The notes under the pieces are model-generated. The model was not told where the DNA came from and ran no database searches. It worked only from the letters and a program-made list of their open reading frames with translations. A DNA stretch of 63,805 nt, counting the filler. It is 16 parts of 16 records of this genome, joined end to end, with 100 filler letters (N's around TTAATTAATTAA, not from the genome) between each part and the next. Parts side by side here need not be neighbours in the genome. Positions count along the whole stretch, not along the records: positions 37,497 to 40,085 come from SRR11831580_5634; 15 more parts are not named here. One strand, given 5' to 3'. Below are positions 38,282 through 38,439 of this stretch, one piece after another. How positions within the stretch are numbered: position 1 is the first letter of the stretch; every line of letters starts with the position of its first letter. A program made the translations under genes and the position numbers.

Positions 38282-38439
38282 GTTTGCTCATCGATGAGCA
38301 AACCTTTCCTAATATTTTTCAAGTTTGTTTGCTCATCGATGAGCAAACAGTTCTCGTTCTTACAGAGTTCGTTTGCTCATCGATGAGCAAACGGTTGTGT
38401 CTACTGCTTGCGTGATAGTTTGCTCATCGATGAGCAATC
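38282..38439. repeat. Array of four 22-bp palindromes (starts 38282, 38327, 38371, 38418) with unique 23, 22 and 25-bp spacers
   Basis: Read directly; three perfect copies, the last with one mismatch near its 3' end. Confidence 0.97.

Follow-up and report, generated by a model that had tools for sequence, protein, structure and literature searches.

Perfect palindromes of 22 nucleotides (nt), arranged as near-identical repeats that alternate with unique spacers, are clustered around and inside an integrase gene on a contig that is read as eukaryotic. This contig (37497-40085, 2589 nt) belongs to a stretch of DNA of 63,805 nt, filler letters included, which is called the window in the following. 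A first-pass annotation made from the letters of the window had described one of the clusters as an array resembling clustered regularly interspaced short palindromic repeats (CRISPR), located within the first predicted intron of the integrase gene. The array is not a CRISPR, and the resemblance is confined to the layout. The reading favoured here, at a probability of about 0.4, is that the palindromes are a selfish or neutral short interspersed palindromic (foldback-type) repeat, which would be copied as a unit and tolerated only in DNA that is spliced out.

A regularly spaced 22-nt palindrome in three clusters

The repeat, GTTTGCTCATCGATGAGCAAAC, is palindromic without exception over all 22 nt; it is centred on ATCGAT and consists of two half-sites of 11 bp each (GTTTGCTCATC|GATGAGCAAAC). 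If up to three mismatches are allowed (<=3), nine copies are present in the window, compared to 0.01 expected, and none of 100 shuffled sequences reached this number (0/100). All nine are located on contig 37497-40085, six of them exact and three with one mismatch, the latter exclusively at the end of an array (3/3 mismatched copies). Isolated exact half-sites are absent from this contig, and the other three eukaryote-like contigs of the window (~9.8 kb in total) harbor no copy of the palindrome. The copies form three clusters within 2.1 kb, around or inside one gene pair (no strand is assigned to the arrays):

37497-37593, array 0: exact copies at 37497-37518 and 37572-37593, spacer of 53 nt, inside a putative minus-strand intron
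38282-38439, array 1: exact copies at 38282-38303, 38327-38348 and 38371-38392, copy with one mismatch (...CAATC) at 38418-38439, spacers of 23, 22 and 25 nt
within the intron 39480-39628, array 2: copies at 39484-39505 (1 mismatch), 39529-39550 (exact) and 39572-39593 (1 mismatch), spacers of 23 and 21 nt

The first-pass annotation had reported array 1 correctly in both coordinates and sequences: four repeats at 38282-38439, spacers of 23, 22 and 25 nt, and a mismatched last repeat. It had overlooked that the repeat is fully palindromic, that five further copies reside in two other non-coding stretches, and that the contigs of the window are unlinked. Array 0 is cut off by the contig start, which falls precisely on the first base of one of its palindromes.

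Five of the six spacers measure 21-25 nt and the sixth 53 nt. They are dissimilar to each other: the lowest p values are 0.04 and 0.043 among 15 direct pairwise comparisons and 0.02 among 21 comparisons in reverse complement, none of which survives correction for multiple testing. Under random placement of the copies in their non-coding stretches, gaps that all fall within 21-25 nt would arise with P ~5-7e-4 in array 1 and ~0.01 in array 2. The layout of constant repeats, unique spacers and fixed spacing is real and non-random. Since the copies are near-identical and the spacers dissimilar, it appears to be the 22-bp unit itself that was copied or homogenised, and not units of 45 bp.

The palindrome-bearing stretches, at least three in number, are non-coding, would be transcribed, and comprise a putative intron of a gene on the minus strand, a 5' intron or leader upstream of the integrase frame, and a 149-nt intron of the integrase gene. 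Their assignment as introns is based on homology and on GT-AG motifs. The following features surround the arrays:

37497-37628 (minus strand): putative intron of the minus-strand gene, proposed from the end of the open reading frame (ORF) and the donor motif GTACGTG at 37628-37622; runs off the contig start
37629-37818 (minus strand): exon of the minus-strand gene (…KVLMPKPPGELTQADIVELL…KKVALFE)
38250-38262 (plus strand): two telomere-like units (TTAGGGTTAGGGG), ~20 nt upstream of array 1
38451-38978 (plus strand): integrase exon 2a, with an N-terminal extension and the H2C2 zinc-binding domain
38979-39029 (plus strand): in-frame intron of 51 nt (GTACGC…GCGCAG) without palindrome; missing from the alignment of distant homologues and coinciding with breaks of the ORF in the closest ones
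39030-39479 (plus strand): integrase exon 2b, the rve catalytic core with the motifs VDFT, ADNG and HPQSQGVVEIKN
39480-39628 (plus strand): phase-0 intron of 149 nt (GTACGT…CTACAG) that holds array 2, the first palindrome starting at intron position +5
39629-40085 (plus strand): integrase exon 3, the C-terminal region; runs off the contig end

Array 2 resides in a well-supported predicted intron. Excision of 39480-39628 joins …APVR to LMYPDAPP…, and exon 3 is collinear with residues 169-290 of the uninterrupted homologue P0019 (32% identity, E 4e-13). The donor starts 4 nt ahead of the palindrome, whose first GT supplies positions +5 and +6 of the GTACGT donor. At the end of the core, the integrase and its homologues P0156 and P0158 (51-55% identical) all continue with 'VR' (GTNCGN) and then diverge. 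Since the 'VR'/GTACG donor position is shared with both homologues, this intron is probably older than the palindromes. P0010 ends and P0007 begins on opposite sides of the palindrome-free 51-nt segment (38979-39029); the palindrome-bearing stretches are three to four times as long as this intron of the same gene.

Array 0 is probably intronic, since a GTACGTG donor identical to that of the other introns ends the minus-strand ORF. For array 1, the first-pass annotation had pointed to a TAG acceptor at 38448-38450. This TAG indeed directly precedes the integrase frame (38451-39560), and the array ends 11 nt before the TAG/AG. A short ORF upstream of the array (ATG at 38123) offers three phase-compatible GT donors. 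A location in the 'first predicted intron' is plausible, and a 5' leader or promoter is equally possible because the first in-frame ATG of the integrase is found at 38523.

The restriction to non-coding DNA, the greater length of the palindrome-bearing stretches, and the contig break at a palindrome, which is expected because assemblers stop at repeats, are together consistent with a repeat whose presence is tolerated only in spliced-out DNA.

Proposed copying of the palindrome and comparison with known repeats

Under the favoured reading, the 22-bp unit would be copied by conversion, by template switching or by an enzyme, and not by classical cut-and-paste transposition with target-site duplications. 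The palindrome would persist only at sites where splicing removes it or where it does no harm for other reasons, presumably without any function for the host, and the spacers would represent unrelated filler of fixed length (21-25 nt). Upon transcription, neighbouring copies would pair into perfect stems of 20-24 bp, compact the intron, and leave with it. The fallback proposal of the first-pass annotation, that the spacers may merely set the spacing, is consistent with everything observed.

Several points weigh against a selfish or neutral repeat. Target-site duplications are inconsistent: with 22-nt boundaries, six of the eight testable copies show none, one shows a duplication of 1 nt and one of 2 nt, and with 24-nt boundaries a GTT duplication is found in 2/8 copies only. 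The regular 21-25-nt spacing (P ~5e-4 and 0.01) is not predicted by selfish insertion. The family may be specific to this locus, since the ~9.8 kb of other eukaryote-like sequence is devoid of copies. No further copy is found in the viral contigs or in the prokaryotic genome collection (0 in each), and metagenome contigs provide two single sites only, both in bacterial-type contigs and neither of them an array. Finally, the perfect conservation of the copies could also reflect selection.

Both metagenome sites are of some interest in themselves. In L001 (1913-1934), the identical 22-mer covers the ATG of a gene encoding a 74-aa XRE-family helix-turn-helix (HTH) protein. The site looks like an autoregulatory operator and is probably unrelated to the eukaryotic copies. 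In the soil-type contig L002 (65-92), the palindrome is extended to 28 nt, an exact half-site is located upstream at 12-22, and no HTH gene adjoins. A protein search with the peptides of palindrome-spanning ORFs (LLIDEQT, CSSMSK) gave no candidate, a result that is uninformative as such heptapeptides are expected by chance.

The palindrome shares some traits with miniature inverted-repeat transposable elements (MITEs) and introners. Terminal inverted repeats are present, since each unit on its own already constitutes a perfect inverted repeat, and an inverted pair is formed by any two copies as well. Target-site duplications are lacking, the 3-nt GTT at 24-nt boundaries in 2/8 copies being the best case. 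Neither does the palindrome seem to supply splice sites or to create an intron: the donor lies ahead of it, and the intron position is apparently shared with homologues.

Hairpin-forming inverted repeats in proliferating introns are reported from Amoebophrya (PMC7789003, available text). As there, repeats are found in spliceosomal introns, and inverted repeats may fold the intron ends together. The introners described in the available text are whole introns with an inverted repeat at each end and bordering short direct repeats (PMC7789003), whereas several copies of one self-complementary 22-mer lie inside the introns here, free of flanking direct repeats. At least one of these introns appears to be older than the repeat, its position being shared with homologues of ~50% identity. 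In Hypoxylaceae, symmetrical stwintrons and sister introns that are able to form double-stranded RNA (dsRNA) proliferate without target-site duplications and hence, according to the part of the report available, not by DNA transposition (PMC8469720). The symmetrical sequence, the capacity to form dsRNA, and the lack of target-site duplications are common to both cases. The fungal introns, as portrayed in that part, show terminal inverted repeats of 45-55 nt and share their overall sequence, while only the 22-nt unit is shared here (PMC8469720). Short selfish palindromes furthermore accumulate in the intergenic and intronic non-ORF DNA of Volvox carteri's mitochondrial and plastid genomes (PMC2670323, as far as the accessible text goes). 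These too are short, hairpin-forming, located in non-coding DNA, and read as selfish. According to the same text, they are organellar, measure ~50 nt on average, possess loops of 3-5 nt, and fill most of the non-coding DNA (PMC2670323), whereas the loop-less 22-mer occurs in small, regularly spaced clusters in nuclear-type GT-AG introns. Keyword searches of the open-access literature did not bring up any account of a short perfect palindrome that is arrayed with unique spacers in nuclear introns, which is weak evidence of absence.

The integrase gene and alternative explanations of the arrays

The open frame 38451-39560 (plus strand) matches Integrase_H2C2 (PF17921; 28.4 bits, cut-off 25.5) and rve (PF00665; 51 bits, cut-off 32.6). 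Its core aligns to the integrase of prototype foamy virus (PFV; E = 3e-12), covering ADNG and HPQSQGvVE, and the first catalytic D is found in VDFT. Judged by these predicted domains, the gene encodes a DDE integrase of the retroviral/Gypsy type, with H2C2 followed by an rve core containing D, D and E. A HMMER search returned 11157 relatives at E <= 1e-3, two of them at E <= 1e-30; the nearest are short ORFs of 52-57% identity. A protein word-index search with exon 2 gave one match, to a fish retroelement (32% identity), an Atlas search gave generic rve clusters, and scans for related loci revealed only relatives of 30-33% identity (L003, L004), which do not carry palindrome arrays. In Pfam, neither the putative exon 1 nor exon 3 has a match.

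At the level of the gene, and as far as the available text describes them, Ginger/GIN elements (PMC2836005) are similar: both they and the gene described here combine a Gypsy-type integrase (H2C2 and DDE core) with GT-AG introns and show no adjacent reverse transcriptase (RT) or RNase H, as far as the sequence of the contig extends. Ginger elements are characterized there by TG…CA-type termini with TGTNR ends and by palindromic target duplications of 4 bp (PMC2836005). TGTNR termini were not seen on the 2.6-kb contig, which ends inside genes, so that the ends of such an element, with any terminal inverted repeats and target duplications, would be located outside the view.

In an adaptive array of the CRISPR kind, acquired spacers would guide the recognition of invaders, and the repeat would be duplicated at each acquisition. 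The palindromes resemble such arrays in their near-identical short repeats, in unique spacers of a narrow, near-constant length range, and in the mismatched copies at the array ends (3/3); an integrase gene adjoins as well. CRISPR repeats usually measure ~23-50 nt and their spacers ~26-72 nt. The repeat described here is 22 nt long and fully palindromic and is combined with spacers of 21-25 nt, both below these ranges. It is moreover found in a eukaryotic context with GT-AG introns and is divided among three very small arrays, each in a non-coding stretch of its own and one within an opposite-strand gene, and no leader is recognizable. The adjacent enzyme is a DDE integrase of the retroviral type, not Cas1. 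The first-pass annotation had seen no cas gene, and the only domains detected on the contig, which spans just 2.6 kb, are Integrase_H2C2 and rve; nor can a cas gene be assigned to the array from the adjoining contigs, these being E. coli DNA without linkage to it. Its statement that no spacer matches elsewhere in the window was confirmed by a search of the window. A viral origin of the spacers, which it had suggested to look for, found no support, since only chance-level matches occur in 50,697 phage records (E = 6). Taken as an explanation of the arrays, CRISPR is regarded as having a negligible probability.

The palindromes may instead be arrays of DNA binding sites, in which the 22-bp dyad is bound by a dimeric protein (a regulator, a chromatin factor or the integrase of the element). 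This explanation is considered possible, albeit rather unlikely. Perfect dyad symmetry with two 11-bp half-sites is what a dimer would recognize. With 2-4 sites per cluster and a period of ~45 bp, the protein could bind cooperatively to control or mark the locus, and the spacing would be regular while the spacers are free to vary. The concentration of three clusters within 2.1 kb around and inside a single gene pair, and their absence from the other eukaryote-like contigs, also agree with such a role. Comparable site layouts are known from the palindromes of baculovirus homologous regions (hr), which act as enhancers and origins, and from the Su(Hw) site array of gypsy. The L001 22-mer over the start codon of the XRE HTH gene occupies a typical operator position, although this is an analogy only. 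Within the palindrome, …GCTCA-TCGA-TGAGC… places CA/TG ends 4 bp apart and thereby recalls abutted integrase-type termini; the half-site begins with TGAGC, however, and not with the TGTNR of Ginger/Gypsy termini, and a CA-N4-TG arrangement has an estimated chance probability of roughly 1 in 16. Natural arrays of binding sites tolerate degeneracy, so that identity at all 22 positions in 6/9 copies exceeds what binding needs. Nor was a DNA-binding protein identified on the contig; the ORF on the minus strand has no Pfam match and a predicted local distance difference test (pLDDT) score of 59.8.

As RNA, a single copy is predicted to form a 9-bp hairpin (-10.6 kcal/mol), and two neighbouring copies a perfect stem of 22 bp in which the spacer forms the loop (-35 kcal/mol). 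Stems between neighbouring copies are predicted to be perfect over 20-24 bp, with loops of 21-25 nt. In the intron 39480-39628, copy 1 is predicted to pair with copy 3 around a hairpin of copy 2 (-56.9 kcal/mol, z = -6.8); the array 1 region would fold into two stems of 24 and 20 bp (-96.3 kcal/mol, z = -10.5), and the minus-strand intron into one extended stem (-54.3 kcal/mol, z = -6.0). These folds arise automatically from a repeated palindrome, and therefore a function is not shown by them.

A role at the RNA level is nevertheless conceivable, though unlikely. The stems might (a) zip the intron and thereby draw its splice sites together or mask and unmask signals for splicing, or (b) provide RNase III or Dicer with hairpins as the source of a 22-nt palindromic small RNA. 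For (a), the outer stem of 39480-39628 would begin 4 nt after the 5' splice site and the last stem of array 1 would end 11 nt before the AG. For (b), the length of the stems (20-24 bp, perfect in the predicted folds, with 21-25-nt loops) and the period of 43-47 nt (~2 x 22) match the size of Dicer products. A self-complementary small RNA would match all palindrome transcripts in either orientation, in a silencing or tuning of the integrase locus similar to that by mirtrons or hairpin RNAs. The same RNA would be obtained irrespective of the strand of the gene, and the plus-strand and the minus-strand gene both contain copies. Among 26 sub-threshold Rfam matches, 25 concern microRNA (miRNA) precursor models. 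Yet these score 21.8-36.8 bits against gathering thresholds of 61-90, and no miRNA precursor family is found at its gathering score (best 36.8 bits vs 63). As the matches occur on both strands equally, they indicate a generic hairpin shape only. The folds themselves are a trivial outcome of repeated palindromes, and the three mismatches are non-compensatory; for instance, the A at position 17 of copy 7 faces a C in copy 9. The first-pass annotation had proposed that repeat hairpins in the excised intron could be cut to release RNAs of 21-25 nt that guide or silence. Hairpins with perfect stems of 20-24 bp are indeed predicted, whereas a CRISPR-like guide or immunity function found no support. 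Dicing of these hairpins would release small RNA from the palindromic stem, not from the spacers.

A more elaborate idea connects the enzyme with the repeat. Bacterial repetitive extragenic palindromes (REP) and bacterial interspersed mosaic elements (BIME) are clustered palindromes in transcribed non-coding DNA that form mRNA hairpins, and the gene of their associated tyrosine transposase (RAYT), an enzyme of the HUH type, is flanked by cognate palindromes. Regularly clustered palindromes near a transposase-type gene are common to these systems and to the contig described here. The REP/BIME-RAYT systems, in turn, are prokaryotic and employ an HUH enzyme that acts on single-stranded hairpins, while the gene on the contig encodes a DDE integrase and a link between enzyme and repeat is hypothetical. 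It would be imaginable, as a decidedly speculative and very unlikely possibility, that the palindromes serve as a self-recognition tag of the integrase gene and thus as a eukaryotic counterpart of REP-RAYT, the integrase or a partner spreading the dyad by a ruler of ~22 nt and diced hairpins giving a handle for silencing. Such a tag would account for repeats that are perfect and for spacers that are unique yet fixed in length, in the manner of CRISPR adaptation, and the 22-bp hairpins would be diced to one palindromic 22-nt RNA that matches every tagged transcript in either orientation.

Origin of the contig and significance of the palindromes

The window consists of 16 separate contigs of 2.1-7.5 kb, joined by identical N44-TTAATTAATTAA-N44 linkers with stops in all six frames (e.g. 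at 37397-37496 and 40086-40185). Since the window is a chain of unlinked contigs, nothing outside 37497-40085 is physically linked to the array, and the order of the contigs is biologically meaningless. Twelve of the 16 contigs show long ORFs with bacterial-type Pfam families, with genes such as ugpAEC, ggt, alanine racemase together with D-amino-acid dehydrogenase, transketolase, a phosphotransferase system (PTS) IID component, YjjI and IscS; one of them also bears an iscRS RNA element. Contig 40186-46486, the only bacterial-type contig tested by BLAST, matches E. coli DH5alpha, K-12 and BL21 at 100% identity from end to end. This match suggests that a eukaryotic assembly was contaminated by a cloning host or in the laboratory, or the reverse. 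The nearest genome, the E. coli-like G001, shares 49% of the 31-mers of the window and has no copy of the palindrome. The window mixes unlinked contigs from at least two organisms.

Four contigs (21269-26840, 37497-40085, 56679-58803 and 61712-63805) lack bacterial-type genes and are eukaryote-like: their ORFs are interrupted and show GTACGTG motifs where they end, and CA-rich microsatellites are present. Contig 37497-40085 has no match in E. coli genomes and is classed as eukaryotic because its GT-AG introns are supported by the alignment of homologues.

A heavily contaminated assembly (40186-46486 being 100% E. coli) raises the question of whether the palindromes are an artefact of assembly or library preparation, for instance a linker or adapter sequence or a loop in the graph. 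The very start of the contig is a palindrome, and a ClaI site (ATCGAT) is located at the palindrome centre. On the other hand, all nine copies avoid coding sequence and lie between plausible splice signals, and excision of the intron restores collinearity with homologues. Stretches of palindrome, spacer and palindrome are short enough to be covered by single reads, and the palindrome is not known to match any adapter or linker. An artefact is accordingly seen as highly improbable.

The gene opposite the integrase provides few clues. Pfam gives no match for its ORF, and the structure predicted for the exon is of low confidence (pLDDT 59.8) and unusable. On the minus strand, 37866-37925 is a possible first exon (MPPKKQ…), followed by a candidate intron of 44 nt. 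If this exon is real, the minus-strand gene and the integrase gene would be divergent, with a gap of ~200 bp.

Among the other eukaryote-like contigs, 21269-26840 (minus strand) shows CA-rich microsatellites directly after AG|GTACGTG. Its donor consensus is that of the integrase contig, and the same organism is therefore suggested for both. An exon-like ORF of this contig has no match in a protein word-index search, and a proposal that the contig encodes midasin received no support from a PDB search. On contig 56679-58803, a 232-aa ORF with a degenerate P-loop (56681-57376, minus strand) has its nearest Atlas clusters in fungi (Mucoromycota, Basidiomycota; score 0.96). This is the sole hint to the organism and is treated as a lead only. 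The TTAGGG units, introns of 44-51 nt and GTACGT donors would presumably fit a fungus as well, again as no more than a lead.

The bearing of the palindromes depends on their distribution. If the family is genome-wide, it would represent an unusual intron-dwelling repeat, a loop-less 22-bp palindrome that is copied without target duplications at fixed spacing, and it would bear on intron growth and on the spread of short foldback DNA. If the palindromes are locus-specific and conserved, they would rather constitute a dyad operator of high specificity or a hairpin-RNA device that controls an integrase-derived gene. In either case, a repeat-spacer layout alone is no indicator of CRISPR.

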